Virus record (IMG/VR): IMGVR_UViG_3300032305_000824
Coordinates: 1-32,176 of that record
Strand: one strand, 5' to 3'
Length of the DNA stretch: 32,176 nt
From: a virus
Lineage: Duplodnaviria; Caudoviricetes
Made by a program: the position numbers and the translations under genes. The notes beneath the pieces are model-generated. The model did no database searches and was not told the DNA's origin. It saw only the letters and a list, made by a program, of their open reading frames with translations. Positions 12,831-32,176 of this stretch are shown piece after piece (within the stretch, counting starts at the first letter, position 1; every line of letters begins with the position of its first letter).

Positions 12831-12831
12831 G

Positions 12832-13212: not shown

Positions 13213-13231
13213 TGTTAATCACCTAAGATTA

Positions 13232-13627: not shown

Positions 13628-13673
13628 AAATATATTATATCAGATATATTTTGTAATGTCTAAAAGTTTGCTA

Positions 13674-14953: not shown

Positions 14954-14967
14954 AATTATATTATACC

Positions 14968-16632
14968 TTATCCGAAAATTTGCCCTGGCAAAATAAATTG
15001 ATCAGATTCTCCATTTATATTATTTAAAGCTTCAGTTGTTGCATACGTTGTAGATGCTGAAGATTGTGTAAGATACAAGGAAAGATCTAAAGTTCCCCAA
15101 CTTGCTACGGACCCAGAGGTTGTTAAATACTTTCCAGCATTGCCAGACTGAGATGGTAGTGCATCAATATTATCTAAGTCTACCTGTGTTGCATAAATTG
15201 TAGAAGCAGAGGATTTTGTAAGATAAATTGTTGAAGCAGAAGCTTGTGTAAGATAAGGATTTAAATTTACATTTAATAAAATTTTATTATTTGCATCATC
15301 ATAAGTAGCTGTAATACCTGTATGAGTATTATGTGTAAATAATGTAGATGCATAATCTTGTACTTGATCTCCAGTTAAACTATCAACAATTCCATTTACT
15401 TCTACCCAATAACTACCGTCATAAATAAAGAATGATCCAGTTGATTGCTTATACCAAGTATCTCCAAGAGATGGTGTTGCTGGAGCAGTTTCAGAAACTG
15501 TAGTTGTAGCACCGCCACCGCCAGATACTAATTGATTTACCCACGCTGAAGATGCTGAGTTCCAAACTATTGACTGCCCATTTGCTAATGAATTTATACT
15601 AACATTTGAAAGACTATTTAAAGTATGATTATGAGAAGTTAAAGAATATGTAGAAGATGCACTAGAAATTGTTAAATAATTTGAAAGGTCTGATGCTGTA
15701 GCAAGACCTGATTCTGCTGGAGTTTGATTTTTCCAAAGACCACTTGCAGTATCATATGCAAGGACTTCATTGTCTGCAATACTGCCATTTAGTTCTAATA
15801 AAACATCGTGAATTTCTCTTAATTCAAAACCATTTTGTACTTTTACAAAAATTTCACCATTGTTTGAATTTACTCTAGTTACAATACCAATAAATACTAA
15901 ATGTGCTGGAGCAAATGGTTTGTTTACAAGACCATAAATTAAATTACCATCTGTTCCAAGCCATACTGGATCTCCTGCAGTTGCTGTAGATGTATCAAGA
16001 CCTGCCAACAGACCCTCTGTTACAACTTTAACTACTGCATTATTTGATCCACCAGTTTCTAAAAGACCTAAAGTTTTACTAGAGGCTGCTTCAGTTGCAT
16101 TTGACGCTTTTGAAACAATTATGTTTGTTCCAGCTGCAGAACTTACATATACTGCCTGACCTTTTGCAATAGAGCCATTTAATTTAACATCATGTTTTAA
16201 TACTGATGTAAATCCAGCAGTTGGAGCACTAGTTACATCAATATGCAATTGATTTAAACCATCATCATAATGTACAGAAGCGTTTACATGATTATTATGT
16301 GTAAATAAAGGAGCAACATAATCTTGAACTTGTTCTTGAGTTAATGAAATTACACCATTTACTTCTACCCAATAAGTTCCATCATAAATATAAAATTCAC
16401 CAGTATCATTTTTATACCAAGAATCCCCAGTTTCTGGAGACGCTGGCTCTGTTGTACTAACAGTGGTTCCACCACCGCCACCACCACCTGCACCAAGGAC
16501 TGACCAAGCTCCTGCTTGGTAAATCTTTGCAACGGATGCTGAAGAATTAAAGTATAGTTCTCCATCGGATCCACTTATAGGATCTGAAGGTAGATTAACT
16601 ATCTTTAAAGTACTTAAAAATTTCTTTGCCAT
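14968..16632 (-). CDS. Tail-fibre/adaptor protein (cassette 5)
   Basis: Two P..GD.WY..TG.F.IYDG.YWVEVNG repeats, YLTxSSAS repeats, C-terminal tag DQFILPGQIFG. Confidence 0.75.
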   Translation of the reverse strand: MAKKFLSTLKIVNLPSDPISGSDGELYFNSSASVAKIYQAGAWSVLGAGGGGGGGTTVSTTEPASPETGDSWYKNDTGEFYIYDGTYWVEVNGVISLTQEQVQDYVAPLFTHNNHVNASVHYDDGLNQLHIDVTSAPTAGFTSVLKHDVKLNGSIAKGQAVYVSSAAGTNIIVSKASNATEAASSKTLGLLETGGSNNAVVKVVTEGLLAGLDTSTATAGDPVWLGTDGNLIYGLVNKPFAPAHLVFIGIVTRVNSNNGEIFVKVQNGFELREIHDVLLELNGSIADNEVLAYDTASGLWKNQTPAESGLATASDLSNYLTISSASSTYSLTSHNHTLNSLSNVSINSLANGQSIVWNSASSAWVNQLVSGGGGATTTVSETAPATPSLGDTWYKQSTGSFFIYDGSYWVEVNGIVDSLTGDQVQDYASTLFTHNTHTGITATYDDANNKILLNVNLNPYLTQASASTIYLTKSSASTIYATQVDLDNIDALPSQSGNAGKYLTTSGSVASWGTLDLSLYLTQSSASTTYATTEALNNINGESDQFILPGQIFG

Positions 16633-16652
16633 TTTTTCCTTCTAAAAATGAA

Positions 16653-16674
16653 GGGCTGGGGTTTATTCCAGCCC
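16653..16674 (-). terminator. GC-rich hairpin (intrinsic terminator or 5' stabilising stem)
   Basis: Minus strand GGGCTGG-AATAAACC-CCAGCCC followed by TTCATTTTT, in the 16633-16692 intergenic gap. Confidence 0.55.
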
Positions 16675-16692
16675 CCCACATTATATTATACT

Positions 16693-17778
16693 TTACCCAA
16701 TTACTACAACACGATAAGTGTCAGCAGCGATTGTTGTTGCACTATTGATTTTAATAGTTATAGCAGATGTTGATGTATGTTGTACATCTACTTCTACCTG
16801 ATTATAATCAGCAGCAACTTCATATACTTGAACTGTTACATCCTTGGTTGCAAGGTTGTGTGTTACAGTCCAGGTACATACTCCACTAGTTGATGTTAGC
16901 GATGTGTTATTAACTGCATATTTCTTTGGGAATCCATCAGTTATTAACTTTGATTCTACAGAAGAAATATCAACAGCAAGACCGCTACCAGTTGTTAAAT
17001 AACTTGTTGAAGCTGTAATAATACCAGCAGTTAATGTTCCAACACTTGCAGAATTATCTGAATATGTGAAATCAATTGTTGAAGAATCTGTTAGCATTGT
17101 GCCAACTGTATCTTCAACAAACTCCTGTAATCCAGTTATATTAGCTGTTGTATGTGTATGACCTTCAAGAGAGATAGCAGTTTCACTACCAAGCAATCCA
17201 GCTGACCACTTATCTGAGGATTCGTTCCAAATTAAAGAAGAATTTGTAGAATCTCCACGCTCAACTTCAATACCTGCATTTACTGCAGGTACTCCAGTTA
17301 CATTGCTATTAAGAGTAATTTGATTATCCTCAATTAGCAAAGTTTCTGTATTTAAAGTTGTTACAGTACCACTTACAGTTAGATTACCATTTACACCAAG
17401 ATTTCCTGCTATTGTTACATCGTCTGGAAGACCAATAGTAATTGATCCAGCAGATCCTGAAACATTTACTTCGTTTGCTGTACCAGCAAGACTAATTACA
17501 CCAGTATTTGTAATTGTAAGAGAATTGCCAGCATCATTATAGTTTAATGAAATTCCAGTTCCACTATCAAGTAGATCATTTACTGCATCTCCAATAAATT
17601 CAGTAGACCCAACGGCTTCCCAAGCTGATCCAGTATATACTTTTAACGTGTTGCTAACAGTATTAAAGTAAACTTGACCAGCAATTCCAGTACCTGGATC
17701 TGTAGCCAAATTATGAATAACACCATTACGCAATTCATTACTATTTAAATCAATATTTGTTAAAAATTTTCTAGACAT
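16693..17778 (-). CDS. Tail-fibre-like structural protein
   Basis: GQVYFNT..LKVY..SAW, 'GNLTVSGTVTTLNTE.L.IEDN.I.LN', 'AGIEVERG', C-terminal 'VTHNL.TKDV.VQVY' motifs of phage fibres. Confidence 0.75.
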   Translation of the reverse strand: MSRKFLTNIDLNSNELRNGVIHNLATDPGTGIAGQVYFNTVSNTLKVYTGSAWEAVGSTEFIGDAVNDLLDSGTGISLNYNDAGNSLTITNTGVISLAGTANEVNVSGSAGSITIGLPDDVTIAGNLGVNGNLTVSGTVTTLNTETLLIEDNQITLNSNVTGVPAVNAGIEVERGDSTNSSLIWNESSDKWSAGLLGSETAISLEGHTHTTANITGLQEFVEDTVGTMLTDSSTIDFTYSDNSASVGTLTAGIITASTSYLTTGSGLAVDISSVESKLITDGFPKKYAVNNTSLTSTSGVCTWTVTHNLATKDVTVQVYEVAADYNQVEVDVQHTSTSAITIKINSATTIAADTYRVVVIG

Positions 17779-17796
17779 ATATTTTCACCCCCTTCA

Positions 17797-18270
17797 TTAC
17801 GATAAATACGCCCTTCCCGAAAATGATCCGATAAAGGTTAAAACTACAGTATTTGAATTTGGATAGTTGTATGACCCCTCAACAACTGTTCCTGCTGTAT
17901 CAACTACTGTAATATTAGGAACAAATCCCAATCCGTGTGTTATGTTCCAAGTTGCAGAAGCATTTTCTTGAATATGTACATACCCAAGCTCTTGGCTTCC
18001 AACTAAATCTACTGGAGTTCCCCATCCTGAATCTGTTTTTGGACCATATAAATTCATATTTGAGGTATTTAAATAAAAATCTCCATTTACGCCAAGACCT
18101 GCTGAAGGTGCTCCAGCACCATTTAAAATACCAGTTCCTCTTGCACCTTGAGGACCAGAAGTTCCTAAATCTACATTTACTATTTGTTCTGTTAGATTAA
18201 CATCTACATTTGTTTCATTTACAGAAACATTATTATTTATTTGACTAAGTTCTATTTTAACTTCAGGCAT
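17797..18270 (-). CDS. Virion protein with collagen-like GPQGARG motif and C-terminal 'W.I.HGLG' domain
   Basis: 157 aa; GAPSAGLGVNGDFYLNT..LYGPKT..GWG; coupled (TAATG) to the upstream gene. Confidence 0.7.
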   Translation of the reverse strand: MPEVKIELSQINNNVSVNETNVDVNLTEQIVNVDLGTSGPQGARGTGILNGAGAPSAGLGVNGDFYLNTSNMNLYGPKTDSGWGTPVDLVGSQELGYVHIQENASATWNITHGLGFVPNITVVDTAGTVVEGSYNYPNSNTVVLTFIGSFSGRAYLS

Positions 18271-18623
18271 TATCTAGTTACCTCTGGAGTTACATTAAAT
18301 GTACCTTCGATCAATCTATCAACAATGTTAGATGGACTTACTATCTCTAGGTCATAGACATGTGTTCCAGTAGGGAAGGCAGATGTAGCACTTGCTGAAA
18401 TTAATATATCAATTGTTCCAGCAGATCCACCCAAAGTAATTCCACTACCAGAAACTAGTGAAACCAATGGATTATCAGAATAATATGCTTGCCTTACTTG
18501 AAGTCTTGAGGAATACCCAGATAGATTTACTGGAACTTCATCCAGGGTATATGTTAAAGTCCTTCTAAACGTGCTTCCTTGTGGACAAACAAAGTTTACG
18601 AGCCCTGGGGTCATATTGGGCAC
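18270..18623 (-). CDS. Small Ig-like/BppU-like virion protein
   Basis: 117 aa; QGSTF...VNLSGY...VYDLEI...RLIEGTFNVTPEVTR. Confidence 0.7.
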   Translation of the reverse strand: MPNMTPGLVNFVCPQGSTFRRTLTYTLDEVPVNLSGYSSRLQVRQAYYSDNPLVSLVSGSGITLGGSAGTIDILISASATSAFPTGTHVYDLEIVSPSNIVDRLIEGTFNVTPEVTR

Positions 18624-18664
18624 TCCTATTTAAATTTTCTTACTTTCTTATTATACCAAACTAT

Positions 18665-18979
18665 TTATTTCTTATCTGCAATATATGCTACTAAAACATC
18701 GTGAATTATTCTTAATTCCCCGCTTAATTGCTTAACGTCTGATTTAATTTCATTTTGATTATCTCCTAGACAATTTACCTTGTCTGCCATACTTGATCCG
18801 CCATTTGGAAATATTTGATGTTCTACACGGTCAAGGCGATCTGCTATGGTTCTACCCTTTTGATCTTTACCAAGAATTCTTTCAAATTTTCTTACTGTTG
18901 CATATCCAACGCCTAAGATGGCGGTAAGGGATAAGAACATTTGCCAGTTTTCAACAAACATAGATATTGAATTATTCAC
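18665..18979 (-). CDS. Single-pass membrane protein with coiled coil (actinophage-type NGGSS motif)
   Basis: N-terminal hydrophobic helix, 'IFPNGGSSMADKV', heptad-like C-terminus; GTG start with GGAG upstream. Confidence 0.65.
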   Translation of the reverse strand: MNNSISMFVENWQMFLSLTAILGVGYATVRKFERILGKDQKGRTIADRLDRVEHQIFPNGGSSMADKVNCLGDNQNEIKSDVKQLSGELRIIHDVLVAYIADKK

Positions 18980-19049
18980 GATATTATGATATACTCCAAG
19001 GTAAGACTTAATAGCAATTATAACATATATATAACATAGGAGTTAATAA

Positions 19050-19262
19050 ATGACCAAAACAAAAGAAAAAGTATTAAAAATTTCAGATCGTTGTGATAGA
19101 TGTGGTGCTCAAGCTTTTGTACTTGCTACTGGAGTTTCGGGGGAATTATTATTTTGCGGTCATCATTATAATAAATATGAATATGCAATTACTCAATGGG
19201 CTTATAAGATTGTTAATGAATTAGATACTATTAATGAAAAAAGTGCAAGTAGTAATATTTAG
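19050..19262 (+). CDS. Small Cys/His Zn-binding protein of an actinobacterial/actinophage family (DUF7455-like)
   Basis: DRCDRCGAQA...LLFCGHH; AGGAG SD; the only plus-strand gene inside the fibre block. Confidence 0.75.
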   Translation: MTKTKEKVLKISDRCDRCGAQAFVLATGVSGELLFCGHHYNKYEYAITQWAYKIVNELDTINEKSASSNI

Positions 19263-19265
19263 GTA

Positions 19266-20117
19266 TTAAGATATTCTATATCTTAAAATTACTATTCCAC
19301 TACCGCCACTGCCACCAGCAGCTCCACCATTTTGTCCTGATCCAGCACCACCACCACCTGTGTTTGCTGTTCCACTTGATGCTGGTACTGCTGCACTACC
19401 ACCTTGACCATTTGCACCACCACCAGCACCGCCAGGAGCACTAGTACTAATAGCACCACCACCACCACCACCAGCATAATAAGTTGCTACACCAGTTATT
19501 GAAGATAAAAATCCAATACCTCCAGAACCTCCAGTGTTTGATGCAGATGATGTTCCAGTATTACCGCCACCACCGCCACCGCTACCAGCATAATTTGGTA
19601 AAGTACTACTTGGTCCTCCAGCAAATCCTTGTCCAGCTGTACCACTGCCAGCAGCATATGCAGTCGAACCATTTGATCCTCCAGCACCACCTCCAGATCC
19701 ACCAAGTCTTCCTACTTTTTGTAGACCTCCGCCACCGCCACCGCCAGTTGCAGTAAATCCAAAACAAGAAGAAGAATTTCCATCTGCACCAGTAACAGCA
19801 CCTGTAGCTCCTACACCACCTGCACCAATTGTAATAGAGTTAGAATAAGCTCCAGGAAGTAAAACACTTCCAGAAAGAACTCCGCCTCCGCCTCCGCCTC
19901 CGCCTTGATCTGATCCTCCAGCACCACCTCCTGCAACAATCAAATATTCAACATTTGCTGATCCTGATATAGTAGAAAATGTTCCTGCAGATGTAAAAAT
20001 ATGACATTTATATGATATTCCGTCTTGAACATATTCTGTAATAGAGTTTCCACCAACTGCAATAAAACTATTAAAGTTAAAATTTGAACTTATTGAACTT
20101 AATGAACTAATTGCCAT
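19266..20117 (-). CDS. Glycine-rich domain protein (cassette 4 effector)
   Basis: YKCHIFTSAGTF...VEYLIVAGGG...GGSGIVILRYRIS. Confidence 0.8.
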   Translation of the reverse strand: MAISSLSSISSNFNFNSFIAVGGNSITEYVQDGISYKCHIFTSAGTFSTISGSANVEYLIVAGGGAGGSDQGGGGGGGGVLSGSVLLPGAYSNSITIGAGGVGATGAVTGADGNSSSCFGFTATGGGGGGGLQKVGRLGGSGGGAGGSNGSTAYAAGSGTAGQGFAGGPSSTLPNYAGSGGGGGGNTGTSSASNTGGSGGIGFLSSITGVATYYAGGGGGGAISTSAPGGAGGGANGQGGSAAVPASSGTANTGGGGAGSGQNGGAAGGSGGSGIVILRYRIS

Positions 20118-20450
20118 TTATTCAGTCACCTCAGCGTAAAAGCCTGTAAAAGAAACACTTGCCGAGGAAGCAATAACTGACAAAACATCTGCTTCATCCA
20201 TACTCATTGCTTGATTAACCATATAGGTATCTTTACCAGCAATTGCTGCATCAAAAATAATATAATGCTTAGGATTTATGGCTTCTCCATTTGGTCTAAA
20301 AGCAATACTAAATGTTGCAGTAGCAGATGCAGTATTGCATATATTTATTGCAGAAAAAATTGTTTGTGTACTAGCAGGAACAGTATAAAGAGTAGTAAGA
20401 GTATTAGCCAAAGGCTGAATTTGAACTGGTGATTTGTAACTAGTTGCCAT
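20118..20450 (-). CDS. 110-aa beta-sandwich connector (cassette 4)
   Basis: MATSYKSPVQ...TLYTVPA...SAINICNTAS...GFYAEVT; close paralog of 23505..23837. Confidence 0.8.
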   Translation of the reverse strand: MATSYKSPVQIQPLANTLTTLYTVPASTQTIFSAINICNTASATATFSIAFRPNGEAINPKHYIIFDAAIAGKDTYMVNQAMSMDEADVLSVIASSASVSFTGFYAEVTE

Positions 20451-20795
20451 TTATATACTCCCCCAAAAGAATGGATCAATTGTAGCTTCTGCTTGTCCAG
20501 ATGCAATAATCCAGGTATTACCATTATATACCTTAGTTATAGGCTTTATATTGTTTGTTGAATCTATCCAGATATCTCCAGTTAAAGGATTTGCTGGGGC
20601 AGAAGAAGAATATGGAATTAATCTTTCATATTGAGTGGAGGCAGAAACTTGACTTAAATATGTATTTTGTAATGCAGCTTCTTCAAGATATCCAAATCCT
20701 GCATCTTGTCCTGATTTCTTCCAAAAATTTCCATCCCAATAATATCCTTGATATAAATCATTTACTTGTGGATTAAGAGGAAATGTAGTAGCCAT
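20451..20795 (-). CDS. Short adaptor protein (cassette 4)
   Basis: FP.NPQVND...YWDG..W; GDIWIDST; C-terminal tag IDPFFWGSI. Confidence 0.75.
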   Translation of the reverse strand: MATTFPLNPQVNDLYQGYYWDGNFWKKSGQDAGFGYLEEAALQNTYLSQVSASTQYERLIPYSSSAPANPLTGDIWIDSTNNIKPITKVYNGNTWIIASGQAEATIDPFFWGSI

Positions 20796-20834
20796 AATAT
20801 TATAATTATACCATTTTAATTTTTAGTTATAATG

Positions 20835-21755
20835 TTATACAAAAGTTACTGTTCCTGTTCCTGCTGTAATCGTAGTTACTTTATCTGCTCCAACAGTTGC
20901 AGTAGAAAGTGTTAAACCTGTTGATGAAATAGAAAGTGTTGAAGCATAACGTAAAATAATTACACCTGTACCACCAGCACCACCGTTTGCGTTGAAAGCT
21001 CCTGATTGTCCAGAACCTGAACCACCACCAGCACCTAAATTTACTGCAGGAGCAGCAGGTGTACCGCTACCGTAACCACTGGCAGAAGCCCCACCGCCAG
21101 TACCTCCAGCACCAACGCCAGCACGATAAAAGTTACCACCACCGCCACCGCCAGCACGGAATACTGCCGTGCCAGTTATTGATGAACTTAAACCTGCACC
21201 GCCATTTCCACCGCCATTGCTCACACCAAATCCACCAACCGCACCAGCACCACCGCCACCGCCACCACATACAGTACCAGTATTACCACCGCCACCATCA
21301 AATCCCTCATTGGCAGTCCCACCGCCACCTGCTATGACGGTAGCATTATTATTACTACCACCAGCACCGCCACCTGAACCACCAACTTGAAATTGTGTGT
21401 AAGAACCGCCACCGCCACCAGTAGAAATAATGTTAGCTATATAAGAATTTGAACCCTTGCCACCAGTGCCTCCAGAACCAGCACCGCCAGAACCAATAGA
21501 AACAGCGTATGAAGTATTTCTTAAGAAAGTTTGAATAGAATTATCTGTTAAAGCACCGCCACCCGAAAGATCACCAGGAAAATTTGTGCGATAACCACCA
21601 GCACCGCCGCCTCCGCCGCCACTACCACCACCAGCACCGCCACCAGCAATTACAAGATATTTAATTGCAAGTGCAGCAGCAGCTTGATTTGAAATGCTAT
21701 TACCTTTTGGTAAACCTTGGGCAATAGTAGATGTAACAAGTCTTTTTACAGCCAT
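20835..21755 (-). CDS. Glycine-rich domain protein (cassette 3 effector)
   Basis: KYLVIAGGG...GGTGVIILRY...KVTTITAGTGTVTF. Confidence 0.8.
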   Translation of the reverse strand: MAVKRLVTSTIAQGLPKGNSISNQAAAALAIKYLVIAGGGAGGGSGGGGGGAGGYRTNFPGDLSGGGALTDNSIQTFLRNTSYAVSIGSGGAGSGGTGGKGSNSYIANIISTGGGGGSYTQFQVGGSGGGAGGSNNNATVIAGGGGTANEGFDGGGGNTGTVCGGGGGGAGAVGGFGVSNGGGNGGAGLSSSITGTAVFRAGGGGGGNFYRAGVGAGGTGGGASASGYGSGTPAAPAVNLGAGGGSGSGQSGAFNANGGAGGTGVIILRYASTLSISSTGLTLSTATVGADKVTTITAGTGTVTFV

Positions 21756-22084
21756 TAGTAAATCTCCGAACCATAAGCTCCAAAAGACATACTTGCACTT
21801 GAGGCATATACTGTTAAAATATCACCAGCATCTATTGCTAAAGCAGTTGTTATTAGAGTTGTATCATTTGCAGCAATTGCTACATCGTAAGCCAAATAAT
21901 GCTCATTTGATAGCGTTGCACCATCTGGTCTAATAGCTATTCTATACGAGCCAACAGAGGCACTTCTATTTGCTATTGATAATGTAGATACAATTGCTTG
22001 TTTTCCAGAACCCACAGTATATAAATTAGTATTTGTAGTAGCTGATGGAGAGGATTGCCCCAGCACTTTATAAGATACAGCCAT
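21755..22084 (-). CDS. 109-aa beta-sandwich connector (cassette 3)
   Basis: MAVSYKVLGQSSP...LYTV...IVSTLSIANR...FGAYGSEI; TAATG coupling to the Gly-rich gene. Confidence 0.8.
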   Translation of the reverse strand: MAVSYKVLGQSSPSATTNTNLYTVGSGKQAIVSTLSIANRSASVGSYRIAIRPDGATLSNEHYLAYDVAIAANDTTLITTALAIDAGDILTVYASSASMSFGAYGSEIY

Positions 22085-22092
22085 TTTTTCTC

Positions 22093-22554
22093 CTAAGTTC
22101 CCACAAATATAAGTGGACTAATTGTATTTTGTTCTATTATACCAGGAATAGCAGCAGATGTTGCATAAGTTGTAGACGCTGAAGACTGCGTAAGATATAA
22201 AGTAGATGCTGAAGACTGTGTGAGATATAAAGAGAGATCTATATTATCTAAATCTACTTGTGTTGCATAAATTGTTGAGGCAGATGCCTGGGTAAGATAT
22301 TCAGCAAGGTCTATTGCAGTTCCAGATACTTCTATCCAATATACAGAATCATACATAAATAATTCATTTGTATCTGTATCAAACCAAAACTCTCCTTGTT
22401 CTGGAGCAGCTGGAGGATTAGCAGATACTGAAATACTGGGTGTGTAGTTGTCTACATATTCAGTAGTTGCATATCCAGCCATATCTGGAAGACCAGAAAC
22501 AAGGGGTAGCCAATTAGTTCCATCACTTACATATGCTTTTTTTGCAGTTGGCAT
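22093..22554 (-). CDS. Adaptor protein (cassette 3)
   Basis: P..GEFWFDT; three YLTQxSAST repeats; C-terminal tag ISPLIFVGT. Confidence 0.75.
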   Translation of the reverse strand: MPTAKKAYVSDGTNWLPLVSGLPDMAGYATTEYVDNYTPSISVSANPPAAPEQGEFWFDTDTNELFMYDSVYWIEVSGTAIDLAEYLTQASASTIYATQVDLDNIDLSLYLTQSSASTLYLTQSSASTTYATSAAIPGIIEQNTISPLIFVGT

Positions 22555-22637
22555 AATTTAATCAACCCCTTTTTATATTTAATTATATCATCTTAGATAT
22601 ATTGTATTGGTAAAAGTTTAAAAGTAGTAATATTTAG

Positions 22638-23504
22638 TTAAGCAATTCTATATCTTAAAATTACTATTCCACTACCACCAGAGCTGTTTCTTGTAGCTAA
22701 ATAATTACTACCACCGCCACCGCCACCACTATTTGCAGTACCTGGAGTACTTGCGGTTGCATTTGATCCTTTAGCTCCATTTCCTCCACCGCCTAAGCCA
22801 CCTAATCCACGAGCAGTCTCATATGCACCACCACCACCACCACCAGAATAATAAGTTGTTGTTCCATTAATAGATGATGGTTTTCCAATTCCGCCAGCAC
22901 CACCATTACTTCCAGAAGTTCCATTTCCGCCAGCAGCACCAGCACCACCACCACCACCACCAGGAAGTGCGGTTTGAATATATGCTCCAGTTCCTCCATT
23001 GTTTCCTTGACCGCTTGTTGCAATACCACCAATACTTAGCTGTCCCTGAGTATCGGCAATTGCTCCTCCACCTCCTGAACCACCAGCAAGTCCATTAAAA
23101 CCTTGACCATGAGATCCACCAGCTCCACCACCAATTGCTACAATTCCATTAAATGACGAAGAGTTTCCAGAAATCATTGGAGCAGTTGATGACATTGGTC
23201 CACCTGCTCCAACAACAACTTGATAACTACCTAGACTTGATAAAGTAAGCATTCCTTCTAAAAATCCTCCAGCACCACCGCCACCTCCCCATTCATATCC
23301 TCCACTACCTCCGCCACCAACTATTAAATATTCAACAATTCCAGATCCTTTAGTTACAACAAAATTTTGAGTTTCTATAAAAGTATGAACTCTATAACTA
23401 ATTCCACCAGAAGTAATTTCAGATATAGCACCGCCACCTGCGTTAAGAAAACCAGTAGATTTAACACTATTTAAGGTTGTTGATCTTGCTGAACTAATTC
23501 CCAT
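22638..23504 (-). CDS. Glycine-rich domain protein (cassette 2 effector)
   Basis: YRVHTF...VEYLIVGGGG...GGSGIVILRYRIA. Confidence 0.8.
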   Translation of the reverse strand: MGISSARSTTLNSVKSTGFLNAGGGAISEITSGGISYRVHTFIETQNFVVTKGSGIVEYLIVGGGGSGGYEWGGGGGAGGFLEGMLTLSSLGSYQVVVGAGGPMSSTAPMISGNSSSFNGIVAIGGGAGGSHGQGFNGLAGGSGGGGAIADTQGQLSIGGIATSGQGNNGGTGAYIQTALPGGGGGGAGAAGGNGTSGSNGGAGGIGKPSSINGTTTYYSGGGGGGAYETARGLGGLGGGGNGAKGSNATASTPGTANSGGGGGGSNYLATRNSSGGSGIVILRYRIA

Positions 23505-23837
23505 TTATGGAGTCACCTCAGCGTAAAAACCTATAAAACATACGCTGGCGGTAGAGGCACGAACCGATAAAACATCTGTAGCACCCATAGACATACCTTG
23601 ATTAATCATATAAGTATCATTGCCAGCAATTGTTGCATCATAAATAATGTGATTTTTATCTTCAAGTCCAGCACCACTTGGTCTAAAAGCAATTCTAAAT
23701 GTTGCATCAGTAGATGCAGTATTACAAATATTGATAGCAGAAAATATTGCTTGAGTATCTGCTGGCACTGTGTATAGGGTAGTATAGGTGTTGGCTGATG
23801 GTTCAACCTGAACTGGTGATTTGTAATTAGTTGCCAT
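23505..23837 (-). CDS. 110-aa beta-sandwich connector (cassette 2)
   Basis: MATNYKSPVQ...TLYTVPA...SAINICNTAS...GFYAEVT. Confidence 0.8.
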   Translation of the reverse strand: MATNYKSPVQVEPSANTYTTLYTVPADTQAIFSAINICNTASTDATFRIAFRPSGAGLEDKNHIIYDATIAGNDTYMINQGMSMGATDVLSVRASTASVCFIGFYAEVTP

Positions 23838-24422
23838 TTATATACCTGCCAAAAAGAATGGATGGATTGTAGCTTCTGCTTGTCCAGATGCAATAATCCA
23901 ATTACTACCATTATACACCTTAGTTACAGGCTTTACAATATTTGTTGAGTCTATCCAAATAGTTCCTTCTTCAGGAGATATGGGAGCAGATGATCCATAT
24001 TTGACTAACTCTGTATCTGTTTTTTTAACATAAGTATTTGAAGCAGAAATTTGGGTAAGATAAAGACTTAAATCTAAAGTCCCCCAACTTGCTGCAGATC
24101 CAGAAGTAGTTAGATATTTTCCACCATTTCCACCTTGAGAAGGAAGGGTAGCAGATTCTGGAATATTTGAAAAATAATTATAATCTCCATCCATTACTTT
24201 ATTTGTTAGTATTTGATATCCAGAAGCAGATACATAGGAAATTTCATCAATTACCTCGTTTGAATCTACCCAAATAAATCCTGCTTCGTGGTAGTCTGGT
24301 TCTGTTGCGGAATAAGTAAAAGGCTTCCAATTTTCACCAATAATATTCCAAGATTCTCCATCAAAAATATAGTCTTGAAATTGTTGACTAACGGAAGCGG
24401 ATAAGGGAAAAATAGTAGCCAT
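23838..24422 (-). CDS. Adaptor protein (cassette 2)
   Basis: FP.SASV, LPSQ.GN.GKYLTT, GTIWIDST, C-terminal tag IHPFFLAGI. Confidence 0.75.
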   Translation of the reverse strand: MATIFPLSASVSQQFQDYIFDGESWNIIGENWKPFTYSATEPDYHEAGFIWVDSNEVIDEISYVSASGYQILTNKVMDGDYNYFSNIPESATLPSQGGNGGKYLTTSGSAASWGTLDLSLYLTQISASNTYVKKTDTELVKYGSSAPISPEEGTIWIDSTNIVKPVTKVYNGSNWIIASGQAEATIHPFFLAGI

Positions 24423-24461
24423 AGTATCTTAATTATATCATTATATGTATTATGTTAATAG

Positions 24462-27074
24462 TTAAATTATTATATTACCAGTACCTGCTGTAAATGTATA
24501 AACTTTATATCCTAATCTACTTACTGTACTTAGTGTGTAAGTTAATCCTGCATCAATGCTTGTTAGATCAGAAAATGAATCTGGGTAGGCAATGATTACA
24601 ATACCAGAACCACCTGCTGCACTGCTGCCGATACCCGAAGCACCGTCATAACTAGCACCGCCACCTCCGCCTCCAGTATTTGTTGTACCAGCAACGGCAC
24701 TAACAGTAGCAGTAGCGGAGTTGCCACCACGACCACCACCACCAGAGCCACCAGCACCTCCGTTGCCAAAACCATATCTTGCACCACCGCCACCACCACC
24801 ACCACGAGTAACTGAACTACCAGTAATAGAACTTGCTGTACCAGCACCGCCTACGCCACCGTTGTCACCACTGTGATTTCCACCTACAGCAGAAGAACCA
24901 CCACCACCGCCAGCAGCACCACCAGAAACAGTGGCTTGACTATTTCCACCTGCGTTGCCTTGACCAGATGGGGATGCAGACCCACCAGTCCCACCTGCTC
25001 CACCGTAAGCACCACCAGCACCGCCACCAGAACCACCAGTGCCACCAGTAGCACCAGAACCAGCGGATCCAGTGCCAGTTCCACTAGCACCACTACCGCC
25101 ACCAGTAGATGTAATAGTTGAAAAAACTGAATTTAAACCTTTTGAGCCAGGAGCATTGCCGCTTGGTGCACCAGCACCGCCAGCACCAACTGTAACTGTT
25201 AAAGAACTTCCCAGCGTTGGTGTCAATGTAGATGTTAAATAGCCACCAGCACCGCCACCACCGCCAGCACCGTACGAGTTGCAACCGCCACCGCCACCGC
25301 CAGCAATGACTAAATACTCAACTAATGTAGGTGCTAGTGCAAAACTAATGGAACCTGAGCCAGCTGTGAATGTAGTGACTTTAAATCCGTTATTTATTTC
25401 AGTTGTATAAATAAGACCTGATCCACCAGCACCTAGTGTGATAGCAAATGATGCAGGGTAACGAATGATTACAACGCCTGAACCACCGTTTCCACCAACT
25501 CCTGAATTCCAGTTTCCACCTCCGCCGCCGCCTCGATTAGCAGTTGCAGAATTAGGTGCACCACTTACGACACCAGCACCAGAACTTGCTCCACCAGCCG
25601 TACCGCCAGTACCATCAGCACCACCACCACCACCAGCGGAGTAATTTATTGATGCACCTGAAATAGATGAATTAAATCCAGCACCACCAGTACCACCAAT
25701 ACTAGTATTAGCATTTGAACCTATAGCGGTAGCACCACCACCACCTGCGCCAGCGTTTTTATTTGAACTTGGATTTATTCCACCCGCAAAACCTTGACCA
25801 GAGATTCCTGTTCCACCAGCAGTTCCACCACCGCCACCAGAGCCGCCATTTGCACCATTCTTAGTTTGATTTGTACCAAGAATACCGCCACCAGAGCCAC
25901 CGCCAGTAGCAAGAATGTTTGAGAAAATGCTATCTGCGCCATTGGTTGCGTTATTTAAATTATTTGCTGACTGACCTGCACCACCAGCACCAACTGTGAC
26001 TGTGAATGAACTAGCAACGTCAATAGAAGTTAAGCCACTTAATAAACCACCAGCACCACCACCACCAATCTGTGCGCCACCTCCACCTGCGACAACTAAA
26101 TACTCAGTTGAAACTTTTGCAGGGGAGTATCTAATAATACCAGTACCAGCAGTAAATGTATAAATTTTAAAACCAAAGCGTGAAGTTGTATCTAATGAGT
26201 AAGAAATACCACTACTAATAAATAGATCGTTGAATGTAGATGGGTATGTAATAATTACTACGCCAGAGCCACCATTAGAAGCACCACCACCGCCGCCGCC
26301 AGTATTAACGGTTCCAGTTGATATTCCTGTTGGCGCACCCGCTGTTGAAGAGTTCCATTTACCACCTGAACCACCACCACCAGAACCGCCTGAACCTGCT
26401 GTATCAGCACTACGCCAAGTTACTCCACCACCACCACCAGCACGAGTTACAGATGTACCAGTAATGGATGAACTTAAACCGTTACCACCATTCCCAGCAA
26501 CAGAAGCAGATGCACTAGCACCAACTGCACCAGCACCACCACCACCACCACCAGAAAATGCAGTAAGATTATTTGTACCTGACCCACCTGCAAATCCTTG
26601 ATCGGTTGTACCCAATCCACCTGCTGCTGTAGTGCCACTTACTGCACCATCGCCATACCCACCGCCGCCACCAGAACCACCTATTGCACCAGCAGTAGTT
26701 GAGTTATTTCCTCCACGCCCACCGCCAATTGAGGTTGTTGTTGAAAATACTGAGTCACTTCCATTTGTTCCTAAATTGCTACTTCCTGAGTAAGTTGTTG
26801 AACCTGTACCACCAGCACCAATAGTTAGTGTGTACGAAGTTTCACTTGTAAGTGTTTGTGTTCCAGTTAAATAACCACCAGCACCACCACCACCAAAACT
26901 ACCACCGCCGCCACCGCCAGCAATAACTAAATATTCAACATTAGGAGAATCTCCTGCCCATAAACTTTGTTGTTTATAAATAATATGATCAGATATATTC
27001 CATTTTCCAATTGCAGCACCCGATGTTGGTTGTCTAACTTTTCCAACAACTCCACCATTGGTTAGTCTAGCCAT
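24462..27074 (-). CDS. Protein with three tandem glycine-rich domains (cassette 1 effector)
   Basis: Three units, each EYLV(I/V)AGGG...GGSG(V/I)VII.YP...(F/Y)K..TFTAG(T/S)G. Confidence 0.82.
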   Translation of the reverse strand: MARLTNGGVVGKVRQPTSGAAIGKWNISDHIIYKQQSLWAGDSPNVEYLVIAGGGGGGSFGGGGAGGYLTGTQTLTSETSYTLTIGAGGTGSTTYSGSSNLGTNGSDSVFSTTTSIGGGRGGNNSTTAGAIGGSGGGGGYGDGAVSGTTAAGGLGTTDQGFAGGSGTNNLTAFSGGGGGGAGAVGASASASVAGNGGNGLSSSITGTSVTRAGGGGGVTWRSADTAGSGGSGGGGSGGKWNSSTAGAPTGISTGTVNTGGGGGGASNGGSGVVIITYPSTFNDLFISSGISYSLDTTSRFGFKIYTFTAGTGIIRYSPAKVSTEYLVVAGGGGAQIGGGGAGGLLSGLTSIDVASSFTVTVGAGGAGQSANNLNNATNGADSIFSNILATGGGSGGGILGTNQTKNGANGGSGGGGGTAGGTGISGQGFAGGINPSSNKNAGAGGGGATAIGSNANTSIGGTGGAGFNSSISGASINYSAGGGGGADGTGGTAGGASSGAGVVSGAPNSATANRGGGGGGNWNSGVGGNGGSGVVIIRYPASFAITLGAGGSGLIYTTEINNGFKVTTFTAGSGSISFALAPTLVEYLVIAGGGGGGCNSYGAGGGGGAGGYLTSTLTPTLGSSLTVTVGAGGAGAPSGNAPGSKGLNSVFSTITSTGGGSGASGTGTGSAGSGATGGTGGSGGGAGGAYGGAGGTGGSASPSGQGNAGGNSQATVSGGAAGGGGGSSAVGGNHSGDNGGVGGAGTASSITGSSVTRGGGGGGGARYGFGNGGAGGSGGGGRGGNSATATVSAVAGTTNTGGGGGGASYDGASGIGSSAAGGSGIVIIAYPDSFSDLTSIDAGLTYTLSTVSRLGYKVYTFTAGTGNIII

Positions 27075-29569: not shown

Positions 29570-29834
29570 AATAATCTAATTATATCATTTAAATCATTAT
29601 ATATAATTAAAAAATTCGCAAAATCGGCTCGCAAAAAATCGGCAAAATAGTACATATATCCAACACCTTATAACTCCGTTATATATGTAATATTTGCGGG
29701 ATAAAGAAGTATTAAGAAATATGCAGAATATTCCCCTATATGAAGATATATATGGTCAGATATGAATTGATGCTAAAGCATAAGACCAGAAATGAAAATA
29801 TTTATCCCCTGAAAAATTACACAAAATAAGTCTT

Positions 29835-29954
29835 TTATAAGAAATATTCCAGAAGTGACCATTCTACAGCTATTGTTATTAATATCAAGAGTAAGTATTG
29901 TTTATATTCTTTATTACTCATATGAGTCTCTGTAAGTTTTTTTAATAATTTCAT
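29835..29954 (-). CDS. Putative 39-aa membrane microprotein
   Basis: Hand translation MKLLKKLTETHMSNKEYKQYLLLILITIAVEWSLLEYFL; G-rich SD-like sequence and a consensus promoter upstream. Confidence 0.45.
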   Translation of the reverse strand: MKLLKKLTETHMSNKEYKQYLLLILITIAVEWSLLEYFL

Positions 29955-30009
29955 TCCCCTGCCCCCAACTTTTCTATAATTTTAGTTTTTTAAGATTCGC
30001 TACACTCAT

Positions 30010-30038
30010 AGTGTAATACCGTTTTTAATACTTGTCAA
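30010..30038 (-). promoter_or_regulatory. Sigma70/SigA-type promoter
   Basis: Minus strand TTGACA-17nt-TACACT; the -10 is one arm of the palindrome TACAC-TCATA-GTGTA (30001-30015). Confidence 0.7.
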
Positions 30039-30074
30039 ATTGAGCTGCCAGAAACATTGACATATTAAATTATT

Positions 30075-30092
30075 TGTTACCTAATTGTAACA
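30075..30092. promoter_or_regulatory. Operator-like site TGTTAC-N6-GTAACA (also fits the GlnR/MtrA-type GTnAC-N6-GTnAC)
   Basis: Perfect 6-bp inverted repeat, directly followed by ATCTCA-N5-TGAGAT (30097-30113). Confidence 0.45.
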
Positions 30093-30292
30093 TAGCATCT
30101 CACATAATGAGATATATATTCACATCCCCGATTTTTCTGAAAATTTTTATATTTGCAGCTATATCCCAATTTGAAGAAAATCTGAATATTTTGTTAAAGT
30201 GTATGATACATAAATTTAAAAATAGACTCACCATTTATTAGTGAGCCCATCTCTAATTATTTTAGTTTTGAAGTGTAATAAAATTCTAGTTT

Positions 30293-30433
30293 TTAAAATT
30301 CATCTTCAAAGTAGTCTTCTATTTCTTGGTCACTCTCGCAAATGATGCAATAGTTAATTTCCCAAGCCGTCAATTTATCATTGCACTTTAGGCACTTAAC
30401 TTTAGTAATGTTTTCTAATGCTAATTCAGTCAT
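30293..30433 (-). CDS. 46-aa CxxC/CxxC Zn-finger microprotein
   Basis: Hand translation MTELALENITKVKCLKCNDKLTAWEINYCIICESDQEIEDYFEDEF; paralog of 30883..31008. Confidence 0.8.
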   Translation of the reverse strand: MTELALENITKVKCLKCNDKLTAWEINYCIICESDQEIEDYFEDEF

Positions 30434-30436
30434 TGT

Positions 30437-30625
30437 TTAACCCTCAATCATTTCACAAATACCTGCACCTATTGCAGATACTAAACCGATAACGGCGGTT
30501 ACTATCATAACCGTTGGACTCATACCGTCTAATCCAATAACTAGTAGTTGTAGTTCTAGTAGTAGTGCAGGTAGTGAGAAGATACCAGTGAATACTAGTA
30601 CGTCTCTTAGGTGGAATAAAAACAT
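30437..30625 (-). CDS. 62-aa two-TM membrane protein
   Basis: Two hydrophobic helices; purine-rich SD-like AGAAAGAG; directly downstream of RNA element copy 1. Confidence 0.7.
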   Translation of the reverse strand: MFLFHLRDVLVFTGIFSLPALLLELQLLVIGLDGMSPTVMIVTAVIGLVSAIGAGICEMIEG

Positions 30626-30645
30626 TTTTTTCTCTTTCTGTTAGT

Positions 30646-30707
30646 GTTGAGATTTATTTGCTAGGCTCATTCGGTTTCCCGACTTATTTGCTAGGCTCAC
30701 TCTCAAC
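30646..30707 (-). ncRNA. Putative structured leader RNA, symmetric element copy 1
   Basis: Transcript: GUUGAGA-GUGAGCCUAGCAAAUAAG-UCGG GAAA CCGA-AUGAGCCUAGCAAAUAAA-UCUCAAC (7-bp outer stem, GNRA hairpin, duplicated 16-mer core). Confidence 0.65.
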
Positions 30708-30722
30708 CTTTCTTATAGTTCT

Positions 30723-30744
30723 AACTTAGCACACATCACCGACA
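30723..30744 (-). promoter_or_regulatory. Phage early-type promoter TGTCRG-N7-TGnTAnnnT
   Basis: TGTCGG TGATGTG TGC TAAGTT; one of five equally spaced copies. Confidence 0.7.
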
Positions 30745-30781
30745 ATTTCTACCTGAATCTCACTATTTGAGACAATTTTAA

Positions 30782-30797
30782 TGTGATGTGCGTCACA
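30782..30797. promoter_or_regulatory. CRP/GlxR-type binding site
   Basis: TGTGA-TGTGCG-TCACA, a perfect TGTGA-N6-TCACA with flanks AA...T. Confidence 0.75.
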
Positions 30798-30801
30798 TAG
30801 T

Positions 30802-30821
30802 TTGTACACAGGTTATCCACA
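30802..30821 (+). promoter_or_regulatory. Tandem DnaA-box pair
   Basis: TTGTACACA-GG-TTATCCACA; the second box is perfect consensus. Confidence 0.7.
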
Positions 30822-30882
30822 GCTGCCCGCGCCCACGCACTCGGGCGTGTCGTTATGGGTGGTCTAAAATGCCCCTGAACTT

Positions 30883-31008
30883 TTATTCGTATTCAGAATA
30901 ATTTTCAGGCTCACAAATAATGCAGTAGGTATTTTCCCACGATGTTAATTTGTCACCACACTCAATACATTTTGTATTGGTAATGTTTTCAATTAGTAAT
31001 TCATTCAT
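30883..31008 (-). CDS. 41-aa CxxC/CxxC Zn-finger microprotein
   Basis: Hand translation MNELLIENITNTKCIECGDKLTSWENTYCIICEPENYSEYE; GAAAGGA SD. Confidence 0.8.
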   Translation of the reverse strand: MNELLIENITNTKCIECGDKLTSWENTYCIICEPENYSEYE

Positions 31009-31028
31009 AATGAATCCTTTCGTTTTTT

Positions 31029-31094
31029 GTTGATACTTATTTGCTAGGCTCATTTAGATTTTTATCTAACTTATTTGCTAGGCTCATTATCAAC
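31029..31094 (-). ncRNA. Putative structured leader RNA, symmetric element copy 2
   Basis: Transcript: GUUGAUA-AUGAGCCUAGCAAAUAAG-UUAGAU AAAA AUCUAA-AUGAGCCUAGCAAAUAAG-UAUCAAC; stems differ from copy 1 but remain paired. Confidence 0.65.
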
Positions 31095-31109
31095 TATTTA
31101 ATTATTTAG

Positions 31110-31131
31110 ATACTATCAGATTGCTCTGACA
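31110..31131 (-). promoter_or_regulatory. Phage early-type promoter TGTCRG-N7-TGnTAnnnT
   Basis: TGTCAG AGCAATC TGA TAGTAT. Confidence 0.7.
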
Positions 31132-31135
31132 GTTT

Positions 31136-31267
31136 TTACTTGAACAATTTTTTGAATTGTCCAACACCGTTAAAATGTTCTGAACAAGTGTTAACCCATT
31201 CATCACCTAGACGCTTTTCGCCTATGGCTACTGCTTTGCAGTATTCGCATTTAGTGAAGTTTTCCAT
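31136..31267 (-). CDS. 43-aa CxxC/CxxH Zn-binding microprotein
   Basis: Hand translation MENFTKCEYCKAVAIGEKRLGDEWVNTCSEHFNGVGQFKKLFK; GAAAGGAAG SD. Confidence 0.75.
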   Translation of the reverse strand: MENFTKCEYCKAVAIGEKRLGDEWVNTCSEHFNGVGQFKKLFK

Positions 31268-31302
31268 TTGAATCACTTCCTTTCTTTATCTTTATAGTAT
31301 TT

Positions 31303-31324
31303 ACTCTAGCATAGGGGTCTGACA
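31303..31324 (-). promoter_or_regulatory. Phage early-type promoter TGTCRG-N7-TGnTAnnnT
   Basis: TGTCAG ACCCCTA TGC TAGAGT. Confidence 0.75.
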
Positions 31325-31362
31325 TTTTTACCCCTTTTTCGGGCGTGTCGTAAAACTATTTT

Positions 31363-31378
31363 TGTGATGTACATCATA
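31363..31378. promoter_or_regulatory. CRP/GlxR-type binding site (one mismatch)
   Basis: TGTGA-TGTACA-TCATA. Confidence 0.6.
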
Positions 31379-31392
31379 GAACATCTGTTCGA
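31377..31392. promoter_or_regulatory. LexA (SOS) box, Gram-positive/actinobacterial type
   Basis: TAGAAC-ATCT-GTTCGA versus consensus TCGAAC-N4-GTTCGA (one mismatch). Confidence 0.65.
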
Positions 31393-31405
31393 ATGCCCGC
31401 GCCCC

Positions 31406-31425
31406 TGTGGATAACCTGTGTATAA
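31406..31425 (-). promoter_or_regulatory. Tandem DnaA-box pair
   Basis: Minus strand TTATACACA-GG-TTATCCACA; an additional near-box TGTGGATTA lies at 31451-31459. Confidence 0.72.
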
Positions 31426-31460
31426 GATGGGTATAAAATGCCCCTGAACCTGTGGATTAT

Positions 31461-31482
31461 TGTTCACCTAATGTTCACCTAA
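31461..31482 (+). promoter_or_regulatory. PHO-box-like 11-bp direct repeat
   Basis: TGTTCACCTAA x2, perfect; the GTTCACC core with an 11-nt period matches Streptomyces PhoP repeat units. Confidence 0.6.
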
Positions 31483-31506
31483 ACACACCCCCTAAATGGC
31501 AGAAAT

Positions 31507-31528
31507 TGTCAGACCCCTGTGGTATGGT
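31507..31528 (+). promoter_or_regulatory. Phage early-type promoter TGTCRG-N7-TGnTAnnnT
   Basis: TGTCAG ACCCCTG TGG TATGGT. Confidence 0.75.
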
Positions 31529-31559
31529 TATACCATAAGACAAAAAGAAAGGACTCAAA

Positions 31560-31748
31560 ATGAGTTACTTAGAAATGATAAGCCTAGATGAAACAGGCGT
31601 GACCGTTAGCCCTATTGACCAAATCTCAATAGGTGATGAAATAGAAATCTTGTTTGCATTACCTCAAGCGACTCTTGCTTGTGTTGTATGTTTAGCACCC
31701 GTTCAATCTGGCTTGGGACATTCATTCTGCCCACGCCACAAAAAATAG
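31560..31748 (+). CDS. 62-aa protein with C-terminal CxxC/CxxH Zn-binding motif
   Basis: CVVC...FCPRH; GAAAGGA SD. Confidence 0.75.
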   Translation: MSYLEMISLDETGVTVSPIDQISIGDEIEILFALPQATLACVVCLAPVQSGLGHSFCPRHKK

Positions 31749-31762
31749 AAAGGTAAACCAAA

Positions 31763-31921
31763 ATGGCTTACACTAAAATGAAAAATGCGTATCTACTAGT
31801 AGATGCTGTAAAGCAATTAGACGATGCAAAAAAAACTGCATTAGAATTTCCTGCACACCAAAGAATGGTGGACTATTGGGAAAACAAAATTCAAGAATTA
31901 ACTAGGCGTGTCTACAGGTAA
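31763..31921 (+). CDS. 52-aa hypothetical helical protein
   Basis: Hand translation MAYTKMKNAYLLVDAVKQLDDAKKTALEFPAHQRMVDYWENKIQELTRRVYR; GAAAGGT SD. Confidence 0.75.
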   Translation: MAYTKMKNAYLLVDAVKQLDDAKKTALEFPAHQRMVDYWENKIQELTRRVYR

Positions 31922-31924
31922 AAC

Positions 31925-31946
31925 TGTCAGACCCCTATGGTAAGAT
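31925..31946 (+). promoter_or_regulatory. Phage early-type promoter TGTCRG-N7-TGnTAnnnT
   Basis: TGTCAG ACCCCTA TGG TAAGAT. Confidence 0.75.
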
Positions 31947-31977
31947 AAATCTAACAAACAAACGAAAGGTTGCCAAA

Positions 31978-32176
31978 ATGACAACACTAAACACAAAAGA
32001 CTTTCTAGAGTCTTACAATGCCCTAAACAATGCTAAGTTTTCGACACACGATAACCGCCTAGCCTATGTTGCACTTTCCACAATGCTTGAACTTTGCATA
32101 AATTGGAAATACGGAATTAACCAAACCCAAAAAACGCTAGACGAAAAATCTAACGAATGGAAAACCGAATTAGAAA
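31978..32176 (+). CDS. Hypothetical protein, 3'-truncated by the window edge
   Basis: MTTLNTKDFLESYNALNNAKFSTHDNRLAYVALSTMLELCINWKYGINQ... open to the window end; GAAAGGT SD. Confidence 0.7.
   Translation, partial: MTTLNTKDFLESYNALNNAKFSTHDNRLAYVALSTMLELCINWKYGINQTQKTLDEKSNEWKTELE

Follow-up and report, generated by a model that had tools for sequence, protein, structure and literature searches.

The question raised by this locus is why two short intergenic blocks of a phage should be filled with words that resemble the binding sites of bacterial regulators. The phage is represented by contig IMGVR_UViG_3300032305_000824, a stretch of 32,176 nucleotides here called the window, and the blocks are A (30758–30880) and B (31339–31482). 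A preliminary description had presented them as order-shuffled mosaics made up almost entirely of sites for host global regulators. Every motif that it listed is present at its position. Named boxes cover 111 of the 144 bases of block B; for block A (84 of 123) the wording was slightly generous. The order of the motifs does differ, but in the slots only. Block A reads NdgR, CRP, DnaA pair, GC box, WhiA, T box, and block B reads WhiA, CRP, LexA, GC box, DnaA pair, T box, with the backbone of CRP, GC box and T box in the same order in both. The blocks are less an order-shuffled mosaic than a single scaffold in which the slots can be refilled, and they are probably two copies of one upstream control cassette with different fillers.

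Downstream of both blocks are promoters of the form TGTC(A/G)G-N10-TAnnnT with no −35 element, which were overlooked earlier and which on their sequence are of the PafBC type. The PafBC consensus is tGTCgg(N10)tA(N3)T, with the element at −23 to −28, an invariant GTC and no −35 (PMC8635444). On the basis of these observations, we think it rather probable that the blocks place small, likely early genes under a control that is read by host proteins, so that their transcription would be tuned to the state of the host.

Cassettes and their PafBC-type promoters

The features of the region are listed below by position and strand. G206 is a host-type chromosome of 1.35 Mb; G006, L003, L007 and L008 are related phage loci.

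30723–30744, minus: PafBC-type promoter of block A, TGTCGG-N10-TAAGTT with an extended −10 TG; would drive the small open reading frames (ORFs) 30437–30625 and 30293–30433
30758–30772, unstranded: block A slot 1, TCTCA-N5-TGAGA, likely operator of NdgR (IclR family); centre −49; same word at host ndgR-leuC
30782–30797, unstranded: block A CRP-type palindrome TGTGA-N6-TCACA; centre −73.5; named from phasing across relatives and from the CRP consensus
30802–30821, plus: block A slot 2, DnaA-box pair with starts 11 bp apart; word and 11–12 bp spacing as beside dnaA in G206
30824–30834, plus: block A GC box TGCCCGCGCCC; no exact match in G206
30841–30853, minus: block A slot 3, GACACGCC, WhiA-type; host sites at nrdR, rpsL, phoH2 and recA
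30852–30880, plus: block A degenerate GTTA(C/T) repeat, which some relatives have in a GlnR/MtrA-like form, and T box TAAAATGCCCCTGAAC
30883–31276, minus: two small-ORF cassettes between the blocks; missing in the close relatives L003 and G006
31110–31131, minus: PafBC-type promoter without boxes, within these small-ORF cassettes
31303–31324, minus: PafBC-type promoter TGTCAG-N10-TAGAGT; its boxes are those on the left side of block B
31339–31351, minus: block B slot 1, GACACGCC, WhiA-type; GACAC starts at −53
31363–31378, unstranded: block B CRP-type box TGTGA-N6-TCATA; centre −74.5
31378–31393, unstranded: block B slot 2, LexA box abutting the CRP site; 15 of 16 bases identical to the LexA box of host-type recA
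31394–31404, plus: block B GC box, second copy
31406–31425, minus: block B slot 3, DnaA-box pair, inverted relative to block A
31434–31459, plus: block B T box, second copy, then a DnaA-like box with one mismatch (31451–31459)
31462–31479, plus: PHO-box-type word GTTCACC as an 11-bp direct repeat; centre near −64 relative to the rightward promoter
31482–31490, plus: degenerate WhiA-type word AACACACCC at −53; intact GACACGCC in L007, L008 and G006
31507–31528, plus: first promoter of the rightward small-gene arm, PafBC-type, TGTCAG-N10-TATGGT
31925–31946, plus: next PafBC-type promoter; GACACG on the opposite strand near −44

The window therefore holds five copies of the promoter. Its spacing was examined in 87 loci exceeding 1.5 kb in length (another 80, all shorter, were left out), where TGTC(A/G/C)G stands 10 bases from the −10 hexamer in 311 occurrences, compared with at most 59 at any other spacing. 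No −35 consensus is present, no base exceeding 0.36 at −37 to −33 in 299 promoters. The −10 hexamers are close to consensus (TATAAT 81, TACAAT 45 and TATACT 41 of 310), and 212 of 310 have the TG extension. Ordinary sigma-70 promoters were considered as drivers and rejected, with 8 found and 11.7 expected in 29570–32176.

For the host side, 20 small Actinomycetes genomes (1.3–1.5 Mb) were used, chosen from a class-wide count; seven genomes marked unpublished were part of that count, and none of the claims depends on them. Tandem WYL genes, that is, a PafB-PafC pair, occur in 19 of the 20. All 19 recA regions that were found have a PafBC-type promoter together with a LexA box, and in 14 of these, judged by eye, GACAC lies shortly upstream of the promoter. 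In G206, PafBC-type promoters were also seen at 64067, 405841 and 484043, before a CarD-like gene, a lexA/yneA-like pair and a small gene with a LexA box.

The arrangement of the boxes was analysed at 310 distinct promoters, retained from 518 matches. At least one box is present at 239 of them, and at least three kinds at 117. Outward from the promoter, the scaffold consists of slot 1 at about −50, the CRP-type box at −74, slot 2 at −88 to −101, the GC box, slot 3 and the T box. Slot 1 holds a WhiA-type or an NdgR-type box, slot 2 a LexA box or a DnaA pair, and slot 3 a WhiA-type box or DnaA. Close relatives carry other mixtures of fillers, such as NdgR-CRP-LexA-GC-DnaA-T and CRP-LexA-GC-WhiA-T. 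In L003 and G006 the start of block A is joined to the end of block B, the two intervening cassettes being absent. In the wider phage family, the GC box is a short GC palindrome heading a module in which WhiA or DnaA and then a T box come next; among 72 matches, a word of the DnaA or WhiA kind follows in 52 and a T box in 41.

A CRP-type box is found at 172 of the 310 promoters, with peaks of the nearest centres at −74.5 (39), −64.5 (18), −84.5 (14) and −85.5 (12), and the 153 boxes within −120 share a helical phase (R 0.75, period 10.2). NdgR-type boxes are centred at −49 or −59 and are nearer the promoter than CRP in 34 of 36 cases, as CRP is nearer than DnaA in 53 of 60. The commonest start of GACAC is −53, with 41 copies among 84 promoters that have GACACG on the same strand. 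Three uses had been put forward for the blocks. Integration of host signals at early promoters fits best, because the boxes stand at fixed distances from PafBC-type promoters, which were not seen when the idea was proposed. Titration of host regulators finds some support for CRP and DnaA, but the CRP, NdgR-type and WhiA-type boxes keep a fixed distance or phase. The third, that incoming DNA is coated by host proteins, is without specific support.

Titration deserves fuller discussion. As a decoy array, the replicated phage copies would draw off host CRP, DnaA, WhiA and LexA and upset host control of replication, division and SOS. The numbers go some way with this: TGTGA-N6-TCAYA occurs 1–9 times per phage, yet at two sites only in 17 host-type genomes, DnaA boxes are paired as at an oriC (132 among the 310 promoters, at scattered positions), and cultured relatives, in which PafBC promoters are lacking, retain small clusters of DnaA and CRP words. 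Decoys, however, would not need the fixed distance and helical phase relative to the −10 that three kinds of box display, and LexA boxes are few (13 of 310 promoters). We rate this reading as quite unlikely, and integration of host signals at the promoters is preferred.

The blocks also stand out from background. In 1000 dinucleotide shuffles of 29570–32176, with motifs chosen post hoc, most of the motif words exceeded the shuffled counts: GACACGCC was observed 3 times (shuffle mean 0.017), the CRP-type box in 3 strand matches (0.008) and the DnaA-type box 4 times (0.30). The observed count was never attained (0/1000) for these three, the GC box, the T box or TCTCA-N5-TGAGA, while the LexA-type word (p 0.026) and GTTCACC (p 0.012) were weaker. 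The real support for the motifs is their recurrence in related phages, which is the better test because the shuffled motifs were picked after the fact.

Here the same vocabulary was indeed found again, in varied order, in many lake-phage relatives. The pair of GACAC and CRP occurs in an estimated 600 or so IMG/VR stretches, of which 156 loci were returned, 80 of them with flanks. In GTDB there are about 720 matches in 596 Gb, in scattered taxa, compared with about 540 expected by chance on our own arithmetic. In each of six near-complete relatives, the promoters and most of the boxes are gathered in one small-gene region of 10–15 kb. Intervals of 150 bp with at least three kinds of box number 2–3 per phage; in this contig they are blocks A and B alone, and G206 has none. 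Some related loci (e.g. L022, L048 and L067) have further modules absent from the window, AAATGTCCGATTTGTC and CTTGAGCGT. The former is also found upstream of a few G206 genes, one of them WhiB-like, and the latter is often fused to an NdgR-type or CRP box.

Candidate regulators for the boxes

The names given earlier to the boxes were compared with their positions in host-type genomes, starting from the DnaA, CRP, LexA and PHO consensus words. LexA, DnaA and the PHO type hold up by host position, and WhiA moderately so. CRP is backed by shape, phasing and the presence of host CRP, and lacks a host regulon.

The exact host LexA word is found in 17 of the 19 recA regions, with similar boxes at lexA/yneA-like genes in G206. 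The DnaA pattern, TT(A/T)TNCACA, is paired as at the host oriC: in G206 it forms pairs 11–12 bp apart beside dnaA, and 10 of its 37 matches are non-coding (5.8% expected). Three of the four G206 matches to the PHO repeat are upstream of phoU/kinase, pstS and pstC, with none in the control. The phage family has 8 distinct copies only, all in the clade of the window, and the identification of GTTCACC as a PHO box of the PhoP/RegX3 type is supported by these host positions.

TCTCA-N5-TGAGA had been left unnamed. It is likely to be an operator of NdgR/LtbR, a regulator of the IclR family, and is treated here as a candidate. In 15 of 17 genomes the word is found between leuC and a gene of the IclR family, and the remaining two have a degenerate form at about the same place (leuC being recognised by its N-terminus). 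It is also present at ndgR-leuC in G206 and at ilvB, and window positions 30757–30773 are identical in 16 of 17 bases to the ndgR-leuC site in L728. The published consensus, a 15-bp imperfect palindrome, and the branched-chain amino-acid regulon of NdgR/LtbR fit this assignment (PMC4340878, PMC8222616). Two more copies occur in the window, a perfect one at 30098–30112, upstream of a TTGACA-17-TACACT promoter (30038–30010) and kept in G006, and another inside a tail gene at 29122.

WhiA is encoded in five of five host-type genomes. On the host side GACACGCC precedes nrdR, and sites of this type are also seen at rpsL, phoH2 and recA. GACAC is the described WhiA motif and nrdR a footprinted target (PMC3781837), while the spacing and strand of WhiA sites are variable (PMC10243135). 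Our confidence that GACACGCC is a WhiA-type site is moderate. CRP with a canonical helix (SRETVNKAL) is likewise encoded in five of five host-type genomes. A GlnR-type repeat, published as GTnAC-n6-GTnAC (PMC10704036), is found at host glnA and amtB and, with a loose pattern, at 24 of the 310 phage promoters; in this window it is degenerate.

Readers and proposed mechanism

If the boxes are functional, they would appear to be read by proteins of the host. No homologue of PafB, PafC, CRP, WhiA, LexA, NdgR, DnaA or one OmpR protein was detected in 10,188 six-frame segments from six phages and the window (best E 0.17), in a search that detected the controls RecA and WhiB in 6/6 phages. A phage-encoded WYL protein or other reader was looked for and rejected: it was found in 0 of 5 records, and among 101 of the 144 called proteins of G006 there was no such Pfam regulator except WhiB. 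The phage's own WhiB could partner host WhiA.

We propose that host sigma-A RNA polymerase would start at the near-consensus extended −10, and that host PafBC, which is activated by single-stranded DNA (PMC11804915), would bind the −26 element and boost the promoter. The single-stranded DNA might be supplied by the infection itself. CRP, on a fixed face of the helix, would contribute activation, and LexA or DnaA beside it would modulate CRP; where LexA abuts the CRP site, SOS cleavage would free that site. WhiA, with host or phage WhiB, would add an input from division, NdgR one from amino acids and a PhoP/RegX3-type regulator one from phosphate. Since fillers differ per cassette, every small gene would respond to a particular combination of signals, and fillers could be exchanged by recombination between cassettes.

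The same elements could serve another purpose, in which the boxes recruit whichever host activator happens to be active, and early output is kept constant in any slow-growth state with no decision being taken. Fillers within a slot are interchangeable, the 117 promoters with at least three kinds of box show 86 distinct order strings, and the boxes lie at activator-type distances from strong −10 elements, all of which would suit such insurance. It fits poorly with the repressor LexA, whose box adjoins the CRP site in block B and in L003, L007, L008 and G006, or with cassettes that vary by gene and promoters that have no box. We consider it unlikely.

A further alternative is that the cassettes serve mainly as handles for recombination, or are bound by a phage protein not recognised here; they would have spread by copying, with a host likeness that is inherited and mostly idle. 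The box bases and distances are conserved while the spacer bases vary, and the match to lineage-specific host sites is close (LexA 15/16, NdgR 16/17); both are at odds with idle sequence, as is the lack of a phage reader in the six phages and the window. What speaks for handles is that cassettes are gained and lost between close relatives, that in one DNA run the joints between contigs pass over parts of cassettes (at low mapping stringency) and that the GC and T boxes are phage-specific. This reading seems to us very improbable.

Two other candidates were dropped. An RNA structure as the purpose of the blocks was rejected, block A and both strands of block B folding no better than shuffles (z 1.59, 0.44, −0.57); Rfam gave no match at E 0.1. 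Counter-silencing of Lsr2 was dropped because the 17 host-type genomes lack Lsr2, which was also found in 0/6 phages, with G011 as positive control. As a separate observation, TTATTTGCTAGGCTCA occurs four times, at 30654–30699 and 31037–31086, with one pair in the leader of each of two small leftward genes. Of these leaders, the first folds better than shuffles (z −2.63), with the copies opposed across an internal loop.

Several observations weigh against control by host regulators. No box is present at 71 of the 310 promoters. Twelve CRP centres are off phase at −69.5 or −70.5, the CRP phases lie 2–3 bp from the class I positions of E. coli, and the order of CRP and WhiA is free (56 of 116). 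The frequencies and p-values are inflated, since a WhiA-plus-CRP pattern was used to collect the loci and these are related to one another. Because the phage −10 hexamers are near consensus, these promoters may fire without PafBC. The LexA box of block B is centred at −88.5, beside the CRP site and not over the core promoter as at host recA; direct LexA repression there seems unlikely, and any action would be through CRP. GACACGCC has 10 matches in G206 compared with 32 in the control, and only 4 are non-coding. Perfect CRP words are depleted in the hosts, with 2 sites (3 strand matches versus 24 in the control) in 17 genomes and 20 in G206 versus 49 and 44 in controls, and no host CRP regulon is marked by the perfect word in these genomes, where weak sites could remain. 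No host counterpart of the GC box or the T box was found in G206, and none of the 30 top host matches to the T box is in an upstream zone. Finally, the phage has a GC content of about 35% and G206 of 48%, and the host is itself inferred.

More tentatively, and we would call this doubtful, a widespread family of lake phages, infecting the most abundant freshwater bacteria, might have moved its entire early programme from sigma-70 to the single-stranded-DNA alarm of host PafBC, with infection triggering itself. The slots would form a board that gates each takeover gene and reads carbon, replication, division, SOS, phosphate, nitrogen and amino acids, by which a lytic phage might defer or shape the infection of starved cells.

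Phage, probable host lineage and known systems

The window is a linear virus fragment of 32 kb, 26% complete. Its minus strand up to 29569 encodes a portal, a protease, a class II ribonucleotide reductase, a glycosyltransferase and numerous tail-fibre-like genes; at 10455–27074, paralogous glycine-rich genes of the latter kind form a long series that alternates with small genes of the phrog_1084 type. Blocks A and B are located where small ORFs diverge, adjoining the start of this structural arm. Tandem AAAAAAT(T/C)(C/G)GCAAAAT repeats at 29609–29660, just upstream of the arm and conserved in G006, are a candidate late promoter. Two small ORFs with cysteine pairs (30330–30433 and 30905–31008) are 71% alike in DNA, which suggests duplication of a whole cassette. 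That the small genes are early is likely, judging from gene size, host-type promoters and the similar position of the small-gene arm in cultured relatives. The region might conceivably be a terminal repeat that is first to enter the cell: contig depth increases near 30130 in one DNA run (summed depths, not copy number). In two RNA runs from lakes, contigs extend over parts of genes at 30405–30700 and 31596–31788 and leave 30702–31538 uncovered; they come from relatives, cannot show starts and are not counted as evidence.

The relative G006 is complete, with a portal 97% identical, and encodes WhiB, RecA, SSB and FtsZ. The best genome matches of its FtsZ (60–61%) are actinobacterial; the gene is full-length (L370:8429–9364; Pfam Tubulin and FtsZ_C) and most like actinobacterial FtsZ. 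G006 also has a lone IF2 N-terminal domain as a small early-arm gene (L366:7070–7261) and a weak match to a proteasome subunit (L370:19326–19889). The sequencing run containing most of the window is labelled metagenome only, and two other runs (share 0.21) are freshwater.

The host probably belongs to the Planktophila/Nanopelagicaceae lineage of actinobacteria, because the arrangement of GACAC, promoter and LexA box recurs in records of those genomes: there are about 140 GTDB records, and among the 80 titles listed 38 are Planktophila or Nanopelagicaceae and all 80 actinobacteria. Hosts of the Planktophila lineage are described as lacking CRISPR spacers, and the two phages cultured on them measure about 39 kb (PMC10202952), far smaller than the present phage family.

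No literature on PafBC promoters or multi-regulator cassettes in phages was found, in a search that covered mainly open-access main texts. Phages that rely on one host regulator have been described; a repeated, slot-based cassette with at least six host regulator words at PafBC-type promoters did not turn up in that search. If true, it would reveal how infection is timed by phages whose hosts grow slowly and are limited by nutrients, and a DNA-damage sensor would have been converted into a phage start switch. With so many natural cassettes, regulator sites could be defined for a host lineage that can hardly be cultured; the NdgR assignment is an example. PafBC, CRP, LexA and WhiA are all conserved.

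The closest cultured phages are the Stanwilliamsviridae of Streptomyces (BillNye, Battuta, Comrade), with portals 50–52% identical and a small-gene arm that has a few DnaA or CRP words. Battuta has the same glycosyltransferase-ribonucleotide reductase-portal order as the window. In large gaps of their small-gene arms, BillNye has three clustered DnaA boxes (L729:24429–24453) and Comrade a CRP-type palindrome (L731:22406), possibly a simpler hub; a match to the hub itself in cultured phages amounted to 9 short matches covering at most 9%. These three have no PafBC-type promoter in the 86 kb scanned (parts of their genomes), whereas sigma-70-type matches number 24, 24 and 50, compared with 3, 7 and 13 in the controls. 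For this reason the change to PafBC-type promoters looks specific to the lake clade, within the 86 kb compared.

Mobile promoter cassettes (PeSL) of T4-type phages and the host-takeover cassettes of the SPO1 type are likewise repeated units of promoter and small gene that are gained and lost by recombination, and they are not known to carry host regulator sites. The T4 middle promoters, which depend on sigma appropriation by MotA/AsiA (cited in PMC8635444), resemble those described here in having a box near −30 in place of the −35. T4 encodes its own activators, whereas no PafB-like reader was detected in the present phages.

The cellular PafBC-dependent (RecA-NDp) promoters, an example of sigma adaptation, have the same TGTC(A/G)G-N10-TA-N3-T with an element at −28 to −23 and no −35 (PMC8635444). 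In contrast, the PafBC-type promoters of the lake phages are viral, occur in 9 to 17 copies per listed small-gene region, and have stronger −10 hexamers and large upstream cassettes. Closest in principle are phages that use a single host regulator: CtrA in alphaproteobacterial phages, LexA in GIL01 and CTX, and Spo0A in phi29 (PMC9437464). There too, host factor sites lie in a phage intergenic region and have been proposed to time the lytic programme (PMC9437464). Each of those phages uses one regulator, whereas here at least six kinds of box are set in a repeated scaffold at a stress-type promoter.

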